A DNA stretch of 64,000 bases, from assembly GCA_043819795.1 (NCBI GenBank), contig JBDREN010000083.1, positions 5,298-69,297 on the forward strand. The letters are read 5' to 3'. A program made the translations under genes and the position numbers. The notes under the pieces are model-generated. The model was given only the letters and a program-made list of their open reading frames with translations, ran no database searches and was not told where the DNA came from. This DNA is from Elusimicrobiota bacterium (lineage in GTDB: Bacteria; Elusimicrobiota; Elusimicrobia; UBA1565). Positions 3,379 to 13,839 of the stretch are shown in pieces. Within the stretch, counting starts at the first letter, position 1, and every line of letters starts with the position of its first letter.

Positions 3379-4625
3379 GGGATCTCCTCCCGTATTCGTT
3401 CTTCGAAGGCCGACAAGGGCCGGACATGGACGGTGCCGGAGCCGTCCCGGCCCATCCATACGTCGTCGCCCCGCAGCGTGAAGCCGGACAGCGGCGCCCC
3501 CCCCTCGTTCAAGAGCGGGAGGCTGTAGACGGCCAGGACGCCCAGCCTGGCGTCGAGCCGGTGCCTGTAGATCATCCGCGTCTCCGAGTCGGCCGACCAG
3601 AAATACGAGCCGTCCTTGAAGATGGAGGAGGGGGCCCTGCCCGGGGCCGGATAGCTCTCGAGCACCGTCAAGCCGGCGTCGATCCCATGCTGATAGAACC
3701 GCCGCTCCGAGGCGTCGCTGGACCACAAGTAGCGACCGTCGAAATAGACCCCGGCGGGGTTCGGTCCCGGGCTCCGATAGGCGCGCACGAGAGAGAAACG
3801 CTCGTCGAGGCGGCGCTTCTGGATCTCGCGCTTCCAGGAGTCGCATACGTAGAGATGCTCGCCCGAAACGGCGATCCCCGTGATATGCGTCTCCGGCAGG
3901 TGAACGGAGCGGACGACCTCGAGGCGGTTGCCCCGGCGCTCGTACTCGTAGACGCTCTGCGTGACCCAGTCGGCGCTCCAGAGCCGGTCCCCGCGCCAGA
4001 CAAGCGCCGTGGCGTTCTCGTGGGGGATGGCGAAATCCCTGCCCGCCTGCCGTCCGTAGAGCGTCCAGAGGATCCAGGCGCAGAACGCTCCCGCGATGAG
4101 CGCGCCCGCCAGCAGCCACGGCCACCCGGACGCTTCGCGCTTCGCCGGCCCGGCGGACCGGCCGCGCGCCGGCAGAGGCGCGGGACGGGCGTCCAGCGGC
4201 GCGATGACCCCGCGGACCTTCTCCGCGAGACGGCGTCCGAGGACTCCCATCCCTTCCGGAGCCTTGCCGCCGGTGAGAACGCGGTCCACGGTCTCCCTCA
4301 GCTCCCGGTTGCTGAAAGGCTTGGCCAGATAGTGGCTCGCGCCCAGCTGCATGACTTCCACGGCCGACTCCACGCTGCCGTAGCCGGTCACCATCACGAC
4401 CGGCGTCGTCCCATCGACCTCCCGAAGCTTGCGCAGGATCTGCACGCCGTCCATCCCCGGCAGGCGCATGTCCAGCAAGACGAGGTCCGCGCCCTCGCGG
4501 GACAAAAACTGCAGCGCGGTGGGGCCGTCCCCGGCCTCGTAGACCTGGTGACCCAGCCGGCTAAGGACGTTCGCGAGCGCCATCCGCATGTCCGCTTCGT
4601 CGTCTACCACCAGGATGCGTGCCAT
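3375..4625 (-). CDS. response regulator with N-terminal REC domain, one TM helix and a C-terminal extracytoplasmic repeat (beta-propeller-like) domain
   Basis: MARILVVDDEADMRMALANVLSRLGHQVYEAGDG..LVLLDMRLPGMDG = CheY-like receiver; TM WPWLLAGALIAGAFCAWILWTLY; 5 repeats with (L/F)(W/Y)xxD(W/S) motifs. Confidence 0.85.
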   Translation of the reverse strand: MARILVVDDEADMRMALANVLSRLGHQVYEAGDGPTALQFLSREGADLVLLDMRLPGMDGVQILRKLREVDGTTPVVMVTGYGSVESAVEVMQLGASHYLAKPFSNRELRETVDRVLTGGKAPEGMGVLGRRLAEKVRGVIAPLDARPAPLPARGRSAGPAKREASGWPWLLAGALIAGAFCAWILWTLYGRQAGRDFAIPHENATALVWRGDRLWSADWVTQSVYEYERRGNRLEVVRSVHLPETHITGIAVSGEHLYVCDSWKREIQKRRLDERFSLVRAYRSPGPNPAGVYFDGRYLWSSDASERRFYQHGIDAGLTVLESYPAPGRAPSSIFKDGSYFWSADSETRMIYRHRLDARLGVLAVYSLPLLNEGGAPLSGFTLRGDDVWMGRDGSGTVHVRPLSAFEERIREEIP

Positions 4626-4626
4626 G

Positions 4627-7600
4627 TCATCCTCTCTTCGCTTCGACCGAAAGCGTCACAGTCGAGGTGCTGCCCGCGTCCTTCTTGCTCCGGAACTCGA
4701 AGGAACCGCCGTGCGCCGCGACGATCCGTTTCGCGATCGCCACGCCCAGCCCCAGGCCGCCGGCCTTCATGGTGTAGAACGGCCGGCCCACATCCTTGAC
4801 GTGCTCCGGCGCCACTCCGGCGCCGGTGTCGGAGACCTCGACGCGGACGGTCCCGCGCGCCGCCTGATAGCGGGCCCTGATCGTCAGAGTGCCTCCCTCC
4901 GGCATCGCCTCGATCGAGTTGAGCAGCAGGTGCAGCAACGCCTCCTTGAGCCGCTCCGAATCGCCGCGAAGCTCCGGGACACCCTCCGCGACATCCGCCA
5001 CGATCCTGATATGCTTCTCGTCGCACTGCCGGGCGACCTCCGCGACGGCCGAGTCGATCCACGCCTCGACCTCGAGCGCCTGCGGCTTCAGGCCCAGGGG
5101 GCGAGTGAAGTCCGTGAGCTGCTCCAGACGCTCCCGCAGGTTCCCGATCGCCCGGAGGATGGCGTCCATGGTCGCGCGCTCCTTGCCGCCGACCCACAAT
5201 CCGGAGAGCCGGTCCTCCGCCAGGCTCTGGATGATGCCCAGCGGGTTGCGGATCTGATGGGCGATCCCGAAGACGAGATCGGTGAGCTCGGTCTCGAAGG
5301 CCACCTGCGGCAGGCGCCCCGTCTCCGCCTCGGGCTTCAGCCCGGAGAGCAGCCGGTCGCGCAGCTGACGGAGCTCCCTCTGCCGCCGCTCGATGTCGAC
5401 CTCCGCCCCGGCAAGCTTGTCCTCGCGCCCCTGGGACTGCCTTTCCCTGGCCGTCATCTCCTCATCGAGCTTCCGGCGACGACGCTCGAGCTCGGCCTCC
5501 TCATTCTTGAGCCGCTCGCGCAGCTTCTTGTCCGTCCCCCGCAAGAGCTCCTCGACTTCCTCGCGGCGCCGCTCGACCTCCGCTTCCTTCTGAGCGGACT
5601 CGTCCATGAGGCGCTTCTCGCCGGACTGCTCGCGCTCCTTGAGCGCCTTATCGCGAGCGTCGAGCTCCGCCTCCCTCTTGTGAAGCTCGGACGACGCGGT
5701 TTCCTGCTGCTTCTGCAGGCGCTCGCCTTGGAGCCGCGCGGTCTGCTCGACCTGGACGGCGCTCTGCTCTTCGAGCTCCTTGCGGCGCTCATCGAACTCA
5801 GCCTCGAGCCTGGTGCGCTCCACCACGAGCCTCTTGCGGTTGGCGGCCAAGAGGGCCGACTCCTTCTCGGCCAGGACGGTCCGCATCTCGCGCTCGAGCT
5901 CCTCGCGACGCCGCGCCTGGTCCTCATCCGCCGCCCTCTGCGACTCGCGCAGCAGACGGCGCTCGTGCTCGAGCTGCGCGTCAAGGTCCCGCTCGTGCGC
6001 CAAACGGCGCTCCTCCCCCTGCTTCTCCAGGAGGTCCTCGCGCTTGCGCAGCTGATCCTCCAGGCTCTCCGCGTGCAGGCGGAACTCCTCCTCCTTCTCC
6101 TTGAGCTGCGCGCGGAGATCGTCCTCTTTGGTCTGCAGATCCCGGTCGTAACGCGCGCGCTCCTCGCGCCGGATGCCGCGACGCGCCTCCTCGACCTTGT
6201 GCAGGAACTCCTTCTGAAGCGCGGCGCGCTCGGCGTCGAGGCCCTCCTCGCGCCTGGCCATCTCATCGCGCAGAGCGACGTGCATCTCCTCGGACGACTT
6301 GCGCAGCTCCGCGCGGTTGCGCTCCTGAGCCTCGCTGACCTCATTGAGCAGCGCCTCCTCCCGCTTCTTCCACGCGCGCTGAAGCTCCTCTTCCCTGCCC
6401 AGATGCTCCCGCTGCAGGGCCGTCTCGCGCTCGCGGAAGTCGCGCTCGAGCTCGGCGCGGCGGGCGTCGAGCCCCGCACGGGCGCGCTCGAGCGCCTCGC
6501 GCTCCGCCGCGACGGACTGCCGCAGGTCGCTGCGCTCCCGCTCCAGCTCGGCCTCGCGTTCCTCGACCGACTCGCGCATGGCCGTCTCCTTGCGCGCGTA
6601 GGCTTCCCGCAGCTCCGTCTCCCGGGCCTTCAGCTTCCGGCGACTCTCCTCGACCTCGACCTCGAGCTCGGCCTTGGCCTTCGCCCAATCCTCCCGCAAC
6701 GCCTCCCGCTGCGCATCGAGATGACCCGAGACCTCCGCCTCGGCCTCCTCGCGCGCGCGCCGCAGCTCGGCCTCCTTCTCGCTGACCGCCTTCTCCAGAG
6801 CCCGCTCCCTCTCGCGGTACTCCCGGGCCACTCCGCTCTTAAACGACTCCAGCTCCCGGGACCGCCGCACCTCCTCGGCCGCGAGCTCGGCGCGCTCCCG
6901 CTCGAGCTCCCCGTGACGCGCCTGGTAGGCGGCCTGCAACTCCTCCTGCCGGTTGCGATACTCGGCCTCCAGGCCGGCCCGGGCCTTTTCGACGTCCCGA
7001 CTTCGCTCCGCCAGCGCGGCGCTCTTGCTCTCGATCTCCCGGACCTGCTCCTGCCGCTCCCGCTCGAAGCGCGCGGCCAGCTCGGTTCTCTGGTCGGCCA
7101 GCTCCTTGCGAAGCTCGGCCTCGCGATGAACGAAGGACTCCTCAAGAGCCTGCTCGCGCTTCCGGAGCGAATCCTCCACACGCTTTTGGGCCGCCCCCAG
7201 CCCCTCGGTCTGGCGTTCGAGCTCGGCCTGACGCGCGCGAACGCCCTGCTCCTGCTTCTGCTGCTCCATGGCCAGAGCATCGCGAAGCTCGGCCTCGCTC
7301 TGCGCGAACGACTCCTCAAGAGCCTGCTCGCGTTTCCGGAGCGAGTCCTCCACGCGCTTGCGGGCCGACTCCAACTCCTCGGTCTTACGTTCGAGCTCGG
7401 CCTGACGCGCGCGAACGGCCTGCTCCAGCGTCTGCTGCTCCGCGGCCAGCGTCTCGCGGTCGCGCTCGAAGCCGGCGCGCAGCTCCCGTTCGCGCAACGC
7501 CGAGGCGGAACGCACCCCCTCCTCCCGCGCCCGGAAGGCGTTCTCGAGCTGCGTCTCGCGCTCACGCAGGCTTTTCTCAACCTGTAATTTGGACGCGTCG

Positions 7601-10600: not shown

Positions 10601-12225
10601 CGGCGCACCTGCTCCAGCGCGATCTCGTAGCGGCGCACCAGCTCGGCCTCCCGCAGGTGCCACTGCTTATCGAGGTTCTTCTCCTTCTGGATGTACTCCG
10701 AGATCACGGTCTGCTTCCACGTCCGGAACTGCTCCTCGATCGTCTGCTGGGTCCTCTCCAGCTCGGCGACCCGGGCCTGGTAGGCCTCCTCGAGCGTCCG
10801 GTCGCGCTGCTCGAACTGCGACTTCAGGGAAGCCCGCTCGGCCTCGACGGCCTTCTCATGCTCCTCGAGGAGCTCCATCTTGCGGCGCGTCCACTCCTCG
10901 CGCAGCGCGTTCTCCTTCGCCAAGTACTGCTCCTGCATCTCCACGTGCTTGTGCTGGGAGGCCTCCTCGAGCGCCTTCTCGCGCTCTTGCACGCGGTTCT
11001 CGGCCTCCGCCCAGCGGGCGTTGAACTCGGCTTCGAGGGCGGTGCGTTGGCGGTCCCCGTCGCGCTGGACCTCGGCCTCCCGCCGCTCGAGGTCCCGGGA
11101 CCGCGCCTGATACTCCTCCTCGAGGGCCTTGGCGCGCTGTCGCGCCCGCTCGGCGGCTTCCGCCTTTTCCTTCTCGAGCTCGTCCTCGACGCGCTTGAGC
11201 AGCTGCGCCTCCTTACGGATGTGGCTCTGCTGCTGCTGGGTCTCCATCTCGGCGTAACGCGTCTCCACGCTCTTCACACGCTTCTGGAAGTCCTCCTCCA
11301 GCTCCCGACGCCGGCGCTCGAGAAGCCCTTCGATCTCGCGCGAGCGGTCGGCCAGCGCGCGGGCACGCTCCTCGAACTGCTCCTGCACGGCCGTATCCAG
11401 CTTCTCACGCGCATCCTTCGCGCGCTGCCACAAGCCGTTCTCGAGCTCCGCCCAGGCGGCCTGCAGCTCGGCCTCGCGCTTGCCGTACTTCTCCTGCAGG
11501 GCGAGCTCCTTGGACCGGAACTCCCCGAAGAGCTTCTCCTCGCGCTCCTGGAGCTTGAGCTCGCCCTCCTTCGCGGCGGCGGCCAGCACCCGCTGGAACT
11601 CCTCGTTCTTGCGCCTAAGATCGAGTATCTCGCGCTCCTTGAGCTCGAGCTCCGCCTCGCGGTTCTTCAGCGTGTTGAGGATCTCCTCGTCGCGTTTCTG
11701 GCGCAGCCGCTGCACCATATCCTGGTCGCGGTGGAAACGGTTGACGAGCTCGGCCTTCTCGCGCTGGGAGGCCATCAGCTCGGCGTCGCGCTGCTCGAGA
11801 ATGCGCCTGAGCTCCCGCCACTGCTCCTCCTTGGAGCGGTGCGTGCCCTTCCACTGCTGGACCTCTGCCGTCAGGCGGGACAGCTCCTCGTCCATGTGCC
11901 CGCGGTCGCGCTCCACGCGCGTCCGTTCCTCTTCGCGGACCTCGAGACGCACACGGTCGCGCCAGCGCTGCTCCTGATCCCGATGATTCTTGCGCTCCTC
12001 CTCCCAGCCTTTGGACTCGTCCTTCCATGCGGCGACCTGTCTCGTCAACTCCTCCTTCTCCTGCTGGAGCATCTGCTGTCCGTTCTGGGCTTCCTGGAGG
12101 TTCCCCTTGAGGCGCACATTCATATCCTGGAGGTCACGGATCGTGGCCACGGCCCCCCGGATCGCAAGTCGCGCAGCTTCCAGATCGGTTATCTCTCGAT
12201 ATGCCTCTTCATCCCATGGGTTCAT
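4627..12225 (-). CDS. giant (~2530 aa) coiled-coil sensor histidine kinase: ~2250 aa of E/R/K/A/L/Q-rich heptad sequence then HisKA (IAHQIRNPL) + HATPase_c (GTGLGLGVA)
   Basis: Single ORF 4627..12309; real start MNPWDEEAYRE at 12225 supplied by upstream repeat unit (GGGAGGcgaccATGA); no TM segments evident; internal 58-codon tandem duplication. Confidence 0.85.
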   Translation of the reverse strand: MNPWDEEAYREITDLEAARLAIRGAVATIRDLQDMNVRLKGNLQEAQNGQQMLQQEKEELTRQVAAWKDESKGWEEERKNHRDQEQRWRDRVRLEVREEERTRVERDRGHMDEELSRLTAEVQQWKGTHRSKEEQWRELRRILEQRDAELMASQREKAELVNRFHRDQDMVQRLRQKRDEEILNTLKNREAELELKEREILDLRRKNEEFQRVLAAAAKEGELKLQEREEKLFGEFRSKELALQEKYGKREAELQAAWAELENGLWQRAKDAREKLDTAVQEQFEERARALADRSREIEGLLERRRRELEEDFQKRVKSVETRYAEMETQQQQSHIRKEAQLLKRVEDELEKEKAEAAERARQRAKALEEEYQARSRDLERREAEVQRDGDRQRTALEAEFNARWAEAENRVQEREKALEEASQHKHVEMQEQYLAKENALREEWTRRKMELLEEHEKAVEAERASLKSQFEQRDRTLEEAYQARVAELERTQQTIEEQFRTWKQTVISEYIQKEKNLDKQWHLREAELVRRYEIALEQVRRAARMEMEKTKEEHDQRRQRDEADLFGRSEKMKQDYARLERDLEDRYDRREAEAKDAHAAEVRALKEAQGRHLLQQARHLDAEYERREAEWKLRVKNLKEGHQSELLEREKQLSEKDLELSRVREEFEKLDAEKRALWEDLQSRERRHEAERVSIQEAQKRREAQREEKYIEMERGLQELWTGKEREYLSRRQEALQAQAQRFAETVQALEAERQKEREQHAAALAEADSQLAVRFEAWKRDALAESEKEKEQWLERQRRMTIREREQQKEHARAHLEALNAESNEREGELAKRRDALQAYHRKREEELADEWRLRERRFIEEQQVVLTRERQSLDELYRSREETLHSNYVSLEKQLKDDRAHKAQLLEEESAEKLKRSLKEQEDGIQRKVRQSEAEFEVKRAAQLESQRAVLEEEYERKQLELEKLQAQLQKEMREKETRLDKSYLEREAELEKRWSQRESELLQKVDEERESYRARIRYETERIAGEMREAIAQREAELKNQQDNLEREYKRRLAESRAEMKKRNDAWLDHQRREIAKEYQHFQEEHRKAMAAQAAELESRVKDLDSRRQALEAEYKSKDESLGEDLRRREQAMVSEMQDNQSRERAALDALYREREDALQKNFLQLEAELKAEWEHKQDLSKREAEDRLAAELRSFTERLNEREARWEDESRRKLEAALEKQRAALEAEYDRREGELDRLRFELEKAIRSQEADLEKAHQQRLSELESDFRKREDAANNERAQAMERLERRKVESESERAEMHRAFEDRQREMDLVLRGREEAIERERTRIEDETGRKKRELETSRMDEEKRLQEREARLEREFEKRKEESRSALAARESELRAALVEERRRLQETYEEHERVLAERQAELIYKEKQLDQAAEQRQDELARKEKALEEARLALEERAREGEADLQRAYSAREEQLRAGFAKRDAELSARTQRERKAFQEELAHRRSLLESEHGDRAAEVESAVRQKEEELAAERERLEAELARRMRELDASKLQVEKSLRERETQLENAFRAREEGVRSASALRERELRAGFERDRETLAAEQQTLEQAVRARQAELERKTEELESARKRVEDSLRKREQALEESFAQSEAELRDALAMEQQKQEQGVRARQAELERQTEGLGAAQKRVEDSLRKREQALEESFVHREAELRKELADQRTELAARFERERQEQVREIESKSAALAERSRDVEKARAGLEAEYRNRQEELQAAYQARHGELERERAELAAEEVRRSRELESFKSGVAREYRERERALEKAVSEKEAELRRAREEAEAEVSGHLDAQREALREDWAKAKAELEVEVEESRRKLKARETELREAYARKETAMRESVEEREAELERERSDLRQSVAAEREALERARAGLDARRAELERDFRERETALQREHLGREEELQRAWKKREEALLNEVSEAQERNRAELRKSSEEMHVALRDEMARREEGLDAERAALQKEFLHKVEEARRGIRREERARYDRDLQTKEDDLRAQLKEKEEEFRLHAESLEDQLRKREDLLEKQGEERRLAHERDLDAQLEHERRLLRESQRAADEDQARRREELEREMRTVLAEKESALLAANRKRLVVERTRLEAEFDERRKELEEQSAVQVEQTARLQGERLQKQQETASSELHKREAELDARDKALKEREQSGEKRLMDESAQKEAEVERRREEVEELLRGTDKKLRERLKNEEAELERRRRKLDEEMTARERQSQGREDKLAGAEVDIERRQRELRQLRDRLLSGLKPEAETGRLPQVAFETELTDLVFGIAHQIRNPLGIIQSLAEDRLSGLWVGGKERATMDAILRAIGNLRERLEQLTDFTRPLGLKPQALEVEAWIDSAVAEVARQCDEKHIRIVADVAEGVPELRGDSERLKEALLHLLLNSIEAMPEGGTLTIRARYQAARGTVRVEVSDTGAGVAPEHVKDVGRPFYTMKAGGLGLGVAIAKRIVAAHGGSFEFRSKKDAGSTSTVTLSVEAKRG

Positions 12226-12348
12226 GGTCGCCTCCCATGGAGATGGACGCGGCCATCCCCTGCGCGATGCTCGGTCATGGTCGCCTCCCACGGCAGTCGA
12301 CGCGACCATTTCCTGCGCTATGCTCGGTCATAACACTGCCTCCAGGTA
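12222..12348 (-). repeat. two tandem 57-nt copies of SD/start-codon-bearing intergenic repeat (mini-ORFs MTEHSAGNGRVDCRGRRP* and MTEHRAGDGRVHLHGRRP*), with own GGAGG SD, ATGA-coupled to each other and to the giant HK start
   Basis: Reverse complement matches repeat at 50606-50719 and 59231-59397; internal 8-bp inverted repeat ATGGTCGC/GCGACCAT; GGGAGG 6 nt before terminal ATG. Confidence 0.7.
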
Positions 12349-12547
12349 GATACGTCCGCCCCCCACGATGGGGCGATGCCCTATAGCACGAACTCTCTCT
12401 TCAACGTTAGTGTATAGCCGCAACCGGAAAAATCAAGCACTCTCAGCCATTACTTGGCCGAGCCTCGGCGGGTTCCCAGATCCGACTCCTAGCCTAGGGA
12501 AAGGATAACGGGGGGTAATTACAGATTCTTTAACGAAAATCGGGGCC

Positions 12548-12774
12548 TAACAGTCCGTGGCAAAAGTCTTCCGGGGCCTGCGATCGCCTGGATGCGGCCT
12601 GCGCCCGCGTTGCTCCTCGGTCACACCGGGCCCCGGCAGGGGCCCAGTGCCGCACGACCTCAGGAAATGCTTCGGAGCGCTGTCATCCCGTAGAGGGATG
12701 CTACCTCGTCGCGCCTTGGCTCGGCTCGCCCCGGACGATTTCGCCATCCGAAATACTTTTGCCACGGACTGTTA
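12548..12774. mobile_element. MITE-like element: 20-bp perfect terminal inverted repeats TAACAGTCCGTGGCAAAAGT flanking ~187 bp, in intergenic region between two HK genes
   Basis: Left IR 12548-12567, right IR 12755-12774 (exact reverse complement); right IR overlaps stop codon of PAS-HK gene; symmetric spurious ORFs MAKVFR on both strands. Confidence 0.45.
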
Positions 12775-13839
12775 AGGCCGCGATCGAGCGGGGAAGACAA
12801 CGGTGACGGCCGTCCCTCGGCCGGCCTCGCTGTCGAAGGAGATGGTCGCCTCGTGCTCGGCCAGGACGCGCTTGGCGAGATAGAGCCCCAGACCCGTGCC
12901 GTCCTCTTTGGTCGTGAAGAAGGGCGCGCTGACCTTCGCCAACACCTCGGGCGCCATCCCCGCGCCCGAGTCCCCCACGACGAGACGCGCCCCCCCCCGC
13001 TCCGGGACGTCCGTGACGACGCGCAGGCGCCCCCCTTTCGGCATGGCCTCGATCGCGTTGACCAGCAGGTTATGGACCACGGCGCGGACATGCTGCTCGT
13101 CGAGGAGCAGTCTCGGGATGTCGCCGAGCCGCACATCGAGCTCGATCCGCTGCTTCTGGCACATCTTCTCGACGAGACGGACGACGCCGCGCGCCACCTC
13201 GTTGAGCGAGCCCTCGCGCAAGAGAGACTTCCCCACCTTGGCGAAGTCCAGAAGGGCCCGTATCGAAAGCGACCCGTGCCGGGCGTTGCGGAGGATCATC
13301 TCGAGGTTCTCTTTCATCTTGGAGTCGGGGGAGAGGGACTCGAGCCCGAACTCGGCCGTGCTGGCGATGACGTGCAGCGGCGTGCGCATCTCGTGAGCGA
13401 AGGTCGCCGCCATTCGCCCGACAGCGCTGAAGCGCTCCATCCTGACCAACGCCTCCTGGACGGCCTTGTGCTCGGGGGCCGTCTCGAAGTCGGCCACGGG
13501 GGGGCTGATCATGACGAGGAAGGCCTCGGGGCCCTTCCCCAGCGAGCGGACGGTCAAGAACACCCTTTCCGGGCTCCCGTCGCGGCGCGTCATCCGCGCC
13601 TCGTAGTTTTTGAGCACCTTCACGTTGCAGGCCGCCTTGAGCAATCCGACGCATTCCTCCCGCCTCGGGAAGAACTCCGCGAAGTCGCGATCGACAGCCT
13701 CCTCGAGGGGGACGCCAAGGAGCTCGGCGGCTCCGCGGGACCACGTCCGGACCACGCGGGAACCGTCGAGCCCGACGAGCGCATCCTCGGACTCGTCGAA
13801 CATGCAGGCGAAAAGGCGGTCTTTCAACCGTTCTTCCAT
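12772..13839 (-). CDS. PAS-domain sensor histidine kinase (PAS + HisKA FAHEMRTPL + HATPase_c)
   Basis: Motifs FAHEMRTPLHVI, NLLVNAIEAM, GDSGAGM, GTGLGLYLAKR. Confidence 0.85.
   Translation of the reverse strand: MEERLKDRLFACMFDESEDALVGLDGSRVVRTWSRGAAELLGVPLEEAVDRDFAEFFPRREECVGLLKAACNVKVLKNYEARMTRRDGSPERVFLTVRSLGKGPEAFLVMISPPVADFETAPEHKAVQEALVRMERFSAVGRMAATFAHEMRTPLHVIASTAEFGLESLSPDSKMKENLEMILRNARHGSLSIRALLDFAKVGKSLLREGSLNEVARGVVRLVEKMCQKQRIELDVRLGDIPRLLLDEQHVRAVVHNLLVNAIEAMPKGGRLRVVTDVPERGGARLVVGDSGAGMAPEVLAKVSAPFFTTKEDGTGLGLYLAKRVLAEHEATISFDSEAGRGTAVTVVFPARSRP

Follow-up and report, generated by a model that had tools for sequence, protein, structure and literature searches.

Two histidine kinase genes of an Elusimicrobiota bacterium, one encoding a PAS kinase and the other a giant kinase, are separated by a 546-bp gap that contains an odd palindrome, and this raises the question of whether the palindrome is native to the locus or was brought there by a mobile element. 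To answer it we analysed the surrounding 64 kb of DNA (the window, by which we mean this whole stretch) together with related loci from other genomes and metagenomes. The palindrome is formed by TAACAGTCCGTGGCAAAAGT at 12548-12567 on the plus strand, which recurs in exactly reverse-complemented form at 12755-12774. With up to three mismatches allowed, TAACAGTCCGTGGCAAAAGT matched the window twice, at the repeat arms alone, and any match at all was found in 0 of 100 dinucleotide-preserving shuffles; a looser pattern for the ends of the family described below again returned just the two arm sites. The 20-bp perfect terminal inverted repeats of the original prediction are thus exact. A repeat search extended the arms to 32 nt at 88% (12543-12574 / 12748-12779). 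Comparison with 59 related elements places the first three nucleotides (TAA) of TAACAGTCCGTGGCAAAAGT in a target-site duplication, so the element proper spans 12551-12771 and has terminal repeats that are perfect over 17 nt and 92% matched over 24 nt. The stop codon of the PAS kinase gene, which had been assigned to the right terminal repeat, lies instead in the target duplication, outside the repeat of the element. The features of the locus are as follows:

12551-12771, minus strand (relative to the 158-nt family consensus): the element proper, very probably a MITE, 221 bp, CAG...CTG, as defined by covariance model R1 and the family termini.
12551-12567, plus strand: terminal inverted repeat CAGTCCGTGGCAAAAGT, the arm on the side of the giant kinase gene, from the repeat search.
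12755-12771, minus strand: terminal inverted repeat arm adjoining the PAS kinase gene, the exact reverse complement of the other arm, from the repeat search.
12547-12550, no strand: one copy of the target-site duplication, CTAA, which reads TTAG on the minus strand, from the comparison of flanks across 60 elements.
12772-12775, no strand: target-site duplication copy TTAA, which includes the TAA stop codon of the PAS kinase gene (12774-12772 on the minus strand).
12772-13839, minus strand: PAS/HisKA/HATPase_c histidine kinase, 355 aa, intact, from the domain search and orthologs.
12518-12535, minus strand: conserved intergenic motif CGTTAAAGAATCTGTAAT, outside the element, which marks the pre-insertion sequence and is shared with the related loci L137, L135 and L136.

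Our analysis indicates that the element is in all probability a MITE, namely a 221-bp non-autonomous derivative of a ~1.47-kb IS family with a transposase of the IS1182/IS5 superfamily. It is an ordinary kind of mobile element and involves no new mechanism. Its size of 221 bp and its terminal inverted repeats are those of a MITE, and it has neither a transposase nor conserved coding capacity. The window holds one copy of the element and no transposase of its family, and the interior of the element shows no similarity to the interiors of full-length IS copies or to the rest of the window.

The search for other copies that the original prediction had proposed revealed dozens of short elements with the same ends in other genomes and metagenomes. 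A one-genome-per-species scan with the 19-mer AACAGTCCGTGGCAAAAGT returned 11 loci, four of them on one 6-Mb Acidobacteriota chromosome and further ones in a second Acidobacteriota MAG and in Bryobacterales, Aminicenantes, Planctomycetota and Phycisphaerae MAGs; a Rhodocyclaceae locus within a coding region is a probable chance match. The similarity of these loci to the window begins sharply at the 19-mer, and in 9 of the 11 an imperfect partner repeat lies 97-262 bp away. A degenerate end pattern matched at least 120 metagenome loci as well as three IMG/VR contigs. Copies often occur together: three elements lie within 2.4 kb at one locus (L004), nine loci have three or more end sites, and the Acidobacteriota chromosome OZ241897.1 (6 Mb) carries at least six family copies. 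Among whole metagenome contigs, an end repeat lies no more than 250 bp from a contig end in 45 of 96 (18.5 expected), a pattern typical of repeats at which assemblies break.

Pairing of left and right ends across the loci listed yielded 60 elements, which fall into the following size classes:

97-420 bp: 50 elements, with a mode at 162 bp; 15 measure exactly 162 bp, including one flanking base per side.
1450-1517 bp: nine elements.
2127 bp: one element.

Short and full-length elements share the end consensus CAGCCCGTGGTGAAAGTC, in which conservation drops after nucleotide 18, and the ends of the window element depart from it at three positions, in each case with a common variant. The GTGGCAAAAGT variant occurs at 20 of 100 short-element ends versus 1 of 20 full-length ends, and no sampled full-length element carries it at both ends. 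Size variants of 170-279 nt are present in other loci. In longer variants (L057 5331-5559, L099 182-378, L119 2466-2662 and L027 1833-2026) one or two copies of a ~36-nt hairpin unit, GGGGTCCCCAACGCGGCAGCCGCGTTGGGGTGGAGC, follow the motif AGCAACGCAGCCAG, and this unit looks like a second, smaller repeat nested within the MITE. The single 2127-bp element (L040 499-2625) contains a group II intron between family ends, with Rfam matches to group-II-D1D4-4 at 614-741 and to Intron_gpII at 2403-2554 and a 462-codon open frame that is a putative reverse transcriptase, judged solely by how its sequence begins; here a group II intron appears to have inserted into a copy of the MITE.

When the window element was compared by blastn with all fetched loci, the matches comprised the ends only, plus 77% identity over positions 3-79. 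Its interior variant was not found elsewhere, whether among the fetched loci by blastn, in the plasmid collection or in protein searches with both of its open reading frames. When the end sequences were looked up as text in the literature, only unrelated primers came back, and the literature on MITEs with IS1182, Acidobacteria or stop codons contained no description of this family. The window element is a member of a very widespread, cross-phylum family of hairpin MITEs, represented in soil and peat Acidobacteriota, Planctomycetota and Elusimicrobiota, for which no earlier description seems to exist.

The nine elements of 1.45-1.52 kb (~1.47 kb) identify the autonomous relatives of the short copies. 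They carry the same 18-nt end consensus and each contains one open reading frame of 454-479 aa that starts with MAMGKR, MAMGRR or MAMGTR. A representative transposase matched the Pfam families DUF772, DDE_Tnp_1 and DDE_Tnp_1_6. Its best NCBIfam model was that of the IS1182 family (NF033551), with a score of 177.6 bits (E 4.3e-52) that does not reach the curated cut-off of 270, and the transposase can accordingly be no more than a divergent IS1182 member; the next model, IS5 NF033581, scored 95.3 bits against a cut-off of 140, also not reached, and other IS5 models scored 36 bits. The transposase clade is enormous, with at least 8000 candidates at E <= 1e-30, most of them on ~1.5-kb contigs; the few named candidates come from Vicinamibacterales and Rokuibacteriota MAGs.

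The family differs from IS5 in that the NCBIfam IS5 models score below the IS1182 model for its transposase, and its end sequences are presumably unlike those of IS5. Like IS5, it has a YTAR target and a 4-bp duplication (5'-YTAR-3' for IS5; PMC5009759), and the catalytic domain DDE_Tnp_1 is common to both. It resembles the IS1182 family in that its autonomous relatives are 1.45-1.52 kb long, within the range of about 1.3-1.9 kb, with a single ~455-aa ORF containing DUF772 and DDE_Tnp_1/DDE_Tnp_1_6, short terminal repeats and a 4-bp target duplication; ISPse1 of the IS1182 family, for example, is 1653 bp long, with repeats of 16/16 bp and direct repeats of 4 bp (PMC3281130). The window element itself differs from IS1182 members in lacking a transposase. 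A related IS lies on plasmid pLB1 (AB244976.1); its transposase is ~50% identical over 90% of its length and is annotated as 'IS5 family transposase'. Its ends, CAGGCCGTTGACGAAGTC and CAGCGCGGTGACGAAGTC, resemble CAGYCCGTGGYRAAAGTC with several positions different, and it is flanked by a CTAA/CTAA duplication; unlike the window element, it is autonomous and belongs to the Alphaproteobacteria, where it is also found on Sphingobium and Novosphingobium plasmids.

A TTAA-like target-site duplication, which the original prediction had suggested looking for, emerged at the level of the family as a 4-bp duplication of YTAR. Most of the 60 elements listed have 4-mers next to CAG...CTG that agree with YTAR, with the central TA present in 43/60 and 48/60 on the two sides. 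The 4-mers of the two sides are equal in 28/60, versus 8.8 +/- 2.5 after permutation, and none of 10,000 permutations reached as high a number. Non-canonical targets were duplicated as well (TTGA/TTGA in L020, CTGA/CTGA in L041). At the window element the flanks are CTAA and TTAA, an imperfect YTAR duplication with three of four positions equal. An IS630/Tc1-mariner parent with a TA duplication, as the string 'TA ACAG' might suggest, was rejected because the full-length elements encode DUF772/DDE_Tnp_1 and because TTGA and CTGA are duplicated as 4-mers. In 22 of the 60 elements a frame open for at least 100 codons (stop to stop) ends in the TAA or TAG of the target; counted by sides, such landings make up 23/120, a modest enrichment over the 11.4% across all YTAR sites of the same loci. 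Landing on stop codons seems to be common for this family in GC-rich genomes.

The alignment of the 158-nt subfamily, with 21 members, shows a long hairpin with many compensatory changes. RNAalifold predicted 47 pairs, of which 27 show compensatory double changes, and in helix 2 all 13 of 13 pairs covary. The predicted structure has 92.9% of cells paired, versus 79.1% in shuffled alignments and 34-43% with slid partners, and a covariation score of 0.39 versus 0.15 (0/500 shuffles as high), although shuffle-based tests of this kind are inflated by the relatedness of the sequences. An AT-rich copy from Planctomycetota (42% GC) retains both length and pairing. The covariance model R1, derived from the 158-nt alignment, matched the window on the minus strand from 12771 to 12551 over its positions 1-158 (76.8 bits, E 4.4e-14), versus 36 bits on the plus strand, where only the terminal repeats matched. 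The motifs CAAGGCGCGACGA and UGUGACCGAGGAGCAACGC align between the window element and R1, and CAAGGCG and GAGGAGCAACGC are nearly invariant in the cmsearch and family alignments. The interior features are:

12604-12633 (approximate), minus strand: conserved family motif GUGUGACCGAGGAGCAACGC and the helix strand that follows it, from cmsearch and the family alignment.
Near 12706-12721 (approximate), minus strand: partner motif CCAAGGCGCGACGAGG, from cmsearch and the family alignment.
12634-12705 (approximate), minus strand: apical sequence of ~72 nt in place of the 10-nt apical loop of the family, from the cmsearch alignment (72 versus 10).

Could the element then be more than a selfish MITE, namely a structured RNA (or single-stranded DNA) selected by the host, with the hairpin, CAAGGCG and GAGGAGCAACGC retained by function? 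Such a function could be, for example, that of a 3'-UTR stabiliser, an RNase III site, an insulator between the kinase genes or a transposition RNA. The compensatory changes, the pairing of the AT-rich copy and the retention of the conserved motifs in the window copy and across phyla speak for this reading, as do the folding energy of the whole window element with its terminal repeats (-141 kcal/mol, z = -7.1) and the orientation of the window copy as modelled, which is the transcription direction of both flanking genes. However, folding of the family alignment is nearly as favourable on one strand as on the other (-50.2 versus -44.2 kcal/mol), so that a transcript strand is not singled out, and among 11 copies that adjoin a long ORF on one side the orientation is the same in 4 and opposite in 7. 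The interior of the window element without its terminal repeats is barely more stable than its shuffles (z = -1.96, 8/200 shuffles), and the ~72-nt apical insert is not conserved, with no similar sequence in the sampled loci or the plasmid collection. Rfam gave no match at E <= 1 for 12000-13200 of the window, none at gathering score in seven loci with family members, and far sub-threshold matches only for one 158-nt member. Moreover, relatives manage without the element at the same locus (see below), and hairpin-templated repair or conversion can preserve the pairing of palindromic repeats in the absence of selection. We therefore regard a host-selected structure as possible but rather unlikely. 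The compensated stems and conserved loop motifs could mean that selection acts across the family on the single strand in its folded form, as RNA or DNA, but this is similarly doubtful. If it does, that strand might be a host-useful 3'-end hairpin on the YTAR stop codons of high-GC genes, or it might be a structure required by the IS1182-like transposase; to our knowledge, a requirement for structure has not been established for DDE transposases of the IS1182/IS5 superfamily. The maintained hairpin could instead reflect palindrome maintenance without function.

The second alternative is that the palindrome is an operator or promoter of the giant-kinase operon, native to the locus. The element does lie within the 546 bp that separate the PAS kinase stop (12772) from the giant kinase gene, whose true start is 12225 and whose minus-strand ORF ends at 4627, and a dimeric regulator could attach to the element's arms, which are perfectly palindromic. 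We compared three orthologous Elusimicrobiota loci, in which the PAS kinase is 64% (L137), 65% (L135) and 59% (L136) identical. All three keep the kinase and, just after its stop codon, the motif CGTTAAAGAATCYGYAAT, yet their intergenic regions lack the element: no end-like site was found near the kinase gene with up to five mismatches, and there was no match to the covariance model. In L136 the order from the small kinase to the giant gene is kept, in L137 the gene after the small kinase matches the giant kinase in its first 25 residues, and the L135 locus ends ~85 bp past the kinase stop codon. The minus-strand sequence is ...GGCCT TAA (CAG...CTG) TTAG GCCCCGATTTTCGTTAAAGAATCTGTAAT in the window and ...GGCACC TAG CCTCCCGG GCCCCGATTCCGTTAAAGAATCCGCAAT in L137. 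The element is thus present at one and absent from the others of a set of orthologous sites, although the relatives are distant (59-65% protein identity), so that loss of the element in their lineages is possible. A palindromic operator conserved in relatives, the observation that would have favoured a native origin, was accordingly not seen; what the relatives keep nearby is a different motif. In other phyla, moreover, dozens of unrelated loci carry the same ends, sharply bounded and flanked by target duplications, and a scan of 12150-12950 found no sigma-70-like promoter and no intrinsic-terminator-like site. A native operator or promoter is thus very unlikely. The element sits in the gap between the two genes, just upstream of the conserved intergenic motif and not inside it. 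The modulation of the giant kinase gene that the original prediction had considered is possible, but the scan gave no positive sign of it.

The true layout of the locus, on the minus strand, is the kinase stop at 12772, the element at 12551-12771, the conserved motif at 12518-12535 and the giant-kinase start at 12225. The positions of the motif in the relatives are ~4270-4290 (L137), ~7125-7142 (L135) and ~6840-6860 (L136), its invariant core is TAA-GAATC-G-AA, and it could serve the giant gene as promoter or operator. The window and L137 also share a second block, the hairpin GCCCCATCGTGGGGGGC at about 12358-12376 of the window. The giant-kinase start was placed at the ATG at 12225, where MNPWDEEAYREITDLEAARLAIRGA matches MNPWDEEQFKEITDLEAARLAIRGA in L137, and the mechanical ORF start at 12309 is wrong. 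Upstream of this ATG lie two tandem 53-bp units, 12222-12274 and 12275-12327, that are 83% identical (region 12222-12331, minus strand). In each, a GGAGG ribosome-binding site is accompanied by an upstream ORF of 18 codons (MTEHSAGNGRVDCRGRRP, MTEHRAGDGRVHLHGRRP), the TGA of which overlaps the next ATG (ATGA). Since L137 is without these units, they represent a tandem insertion of 106 bp that came to lie between the giant kinase start codon and the ancestral ribosome-binding site.

Least credible of all is that the element encodes a small protein: its two 72-codon ORFs, 12557-12775 on the plus strand and 12547-12765 on the minus strand, are both open from GTG to stop with a length that is a multiple of three, but they are mirror images of each other (both MAKVFR...TFATDC*) because the terminal repeat holds the GTG and the flanking YTAR of the target duplication holds the stop, open frames are common at 67% GC, neither ORF matched Pfam, no homolog was found among 5.8 billion clustered proteins, and 1.84 billion representatives gave two weak matches (proteins of 830 and 2698 aa), neither of them credible. 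The original prediction had likewise seen no convincing ORF here. Gene callers may annotate the 72-codon ORFs of family copies as hypothetical proteins.

The reading of the element as a MITE, which the original prediction had put forward as MITE-like, is in turn borne out by the family copies, by the transposase-encoding relatives with the same ends and by the YTAR flanks, and it accounts for both the odd palindrome and the two spurious 72-codon ORFs. We infer the following course of events. A transposase supplied in trans would bind the 17-18-nt terminal repeats (consensus CAGCCCGTGGTGAAAGTC) and excise the element, which would then insert at a YTAR site through a 4-bp staggered cut, the repair of which duplicates the target. 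At this locus the target was presumably an ancestral TTAR within which the PAS kinase gene had its stop codon, and the junction before insertion, without the element, would have read ...GGCCTTAR on the minus strand, followed directly by GCCCCGATT. The timing of the insertion, like mobilisation in trans, belongs to this proposed part of the account.

The kinase itself shows no trace of damage. It matches an NCBI protein derived from an Elusimicrobiota MAG at 100% identity, it is not truncated (355 aa versus 353-361 aa in orthologs) and its HATPase_c domain is complete (residues 247-352 of 355, profile 2-110/111). One copy of the duplicated target supplies an in-frame TAA, and hence the kinase protein is unaltered. 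The element now lies between the kinase gene and the motif that relatives carry about 8-60 bp past the stop codon. As in its relatives, it is predicted to form a long imperfect hairpin, the stems of which are maintained by compensatory substitutions, and an mRNA reading through from the kinase gene would, according to the folding model, end in or traverse a very stable stem-loop. If the kinase gene is read through, this stem-loop could affect mRNA stability or the coupling to the giant kinase gene.

In its general design the family is analogous to the ERIC, Correia/NEMIS, RUP and BOX-type MITEs. These are short, transposase-less elements bounded by terminal inverted repeats and flanked by a short duplication of the target; they are dispersed in many intergenic copies, each of which folds as a whole into a long imperfect hairpin, and they often adjoin stop codons and are co-transcribed with neighbouring genes. 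Unlike these elements, the present family has another parent transposase family and other ends, and it is found in Acidobacteriota, Planctomycetota and Elusimicrobiota, whereas ERIC, Correia, RUP and BOX are known from Proteobacteria or Firmicutes. Hairpin MITEs with short target duplications are already well known; what is apparently new is the description of this family.

Soil metagenomes abound in this MITE/IS family. It is defined by its end consensus, the YTAR duplication of its targets and the covariance model, and this definition makes it searchable, which is useful for repeat masking, for the curation of MAGs and for tracing horizontal transfer between phyla. For the host, the locus illustrates that in a GC-rich genome an element that targets YTAR can land on a stop codon, regenerate the stop and leave the protein unaltered.
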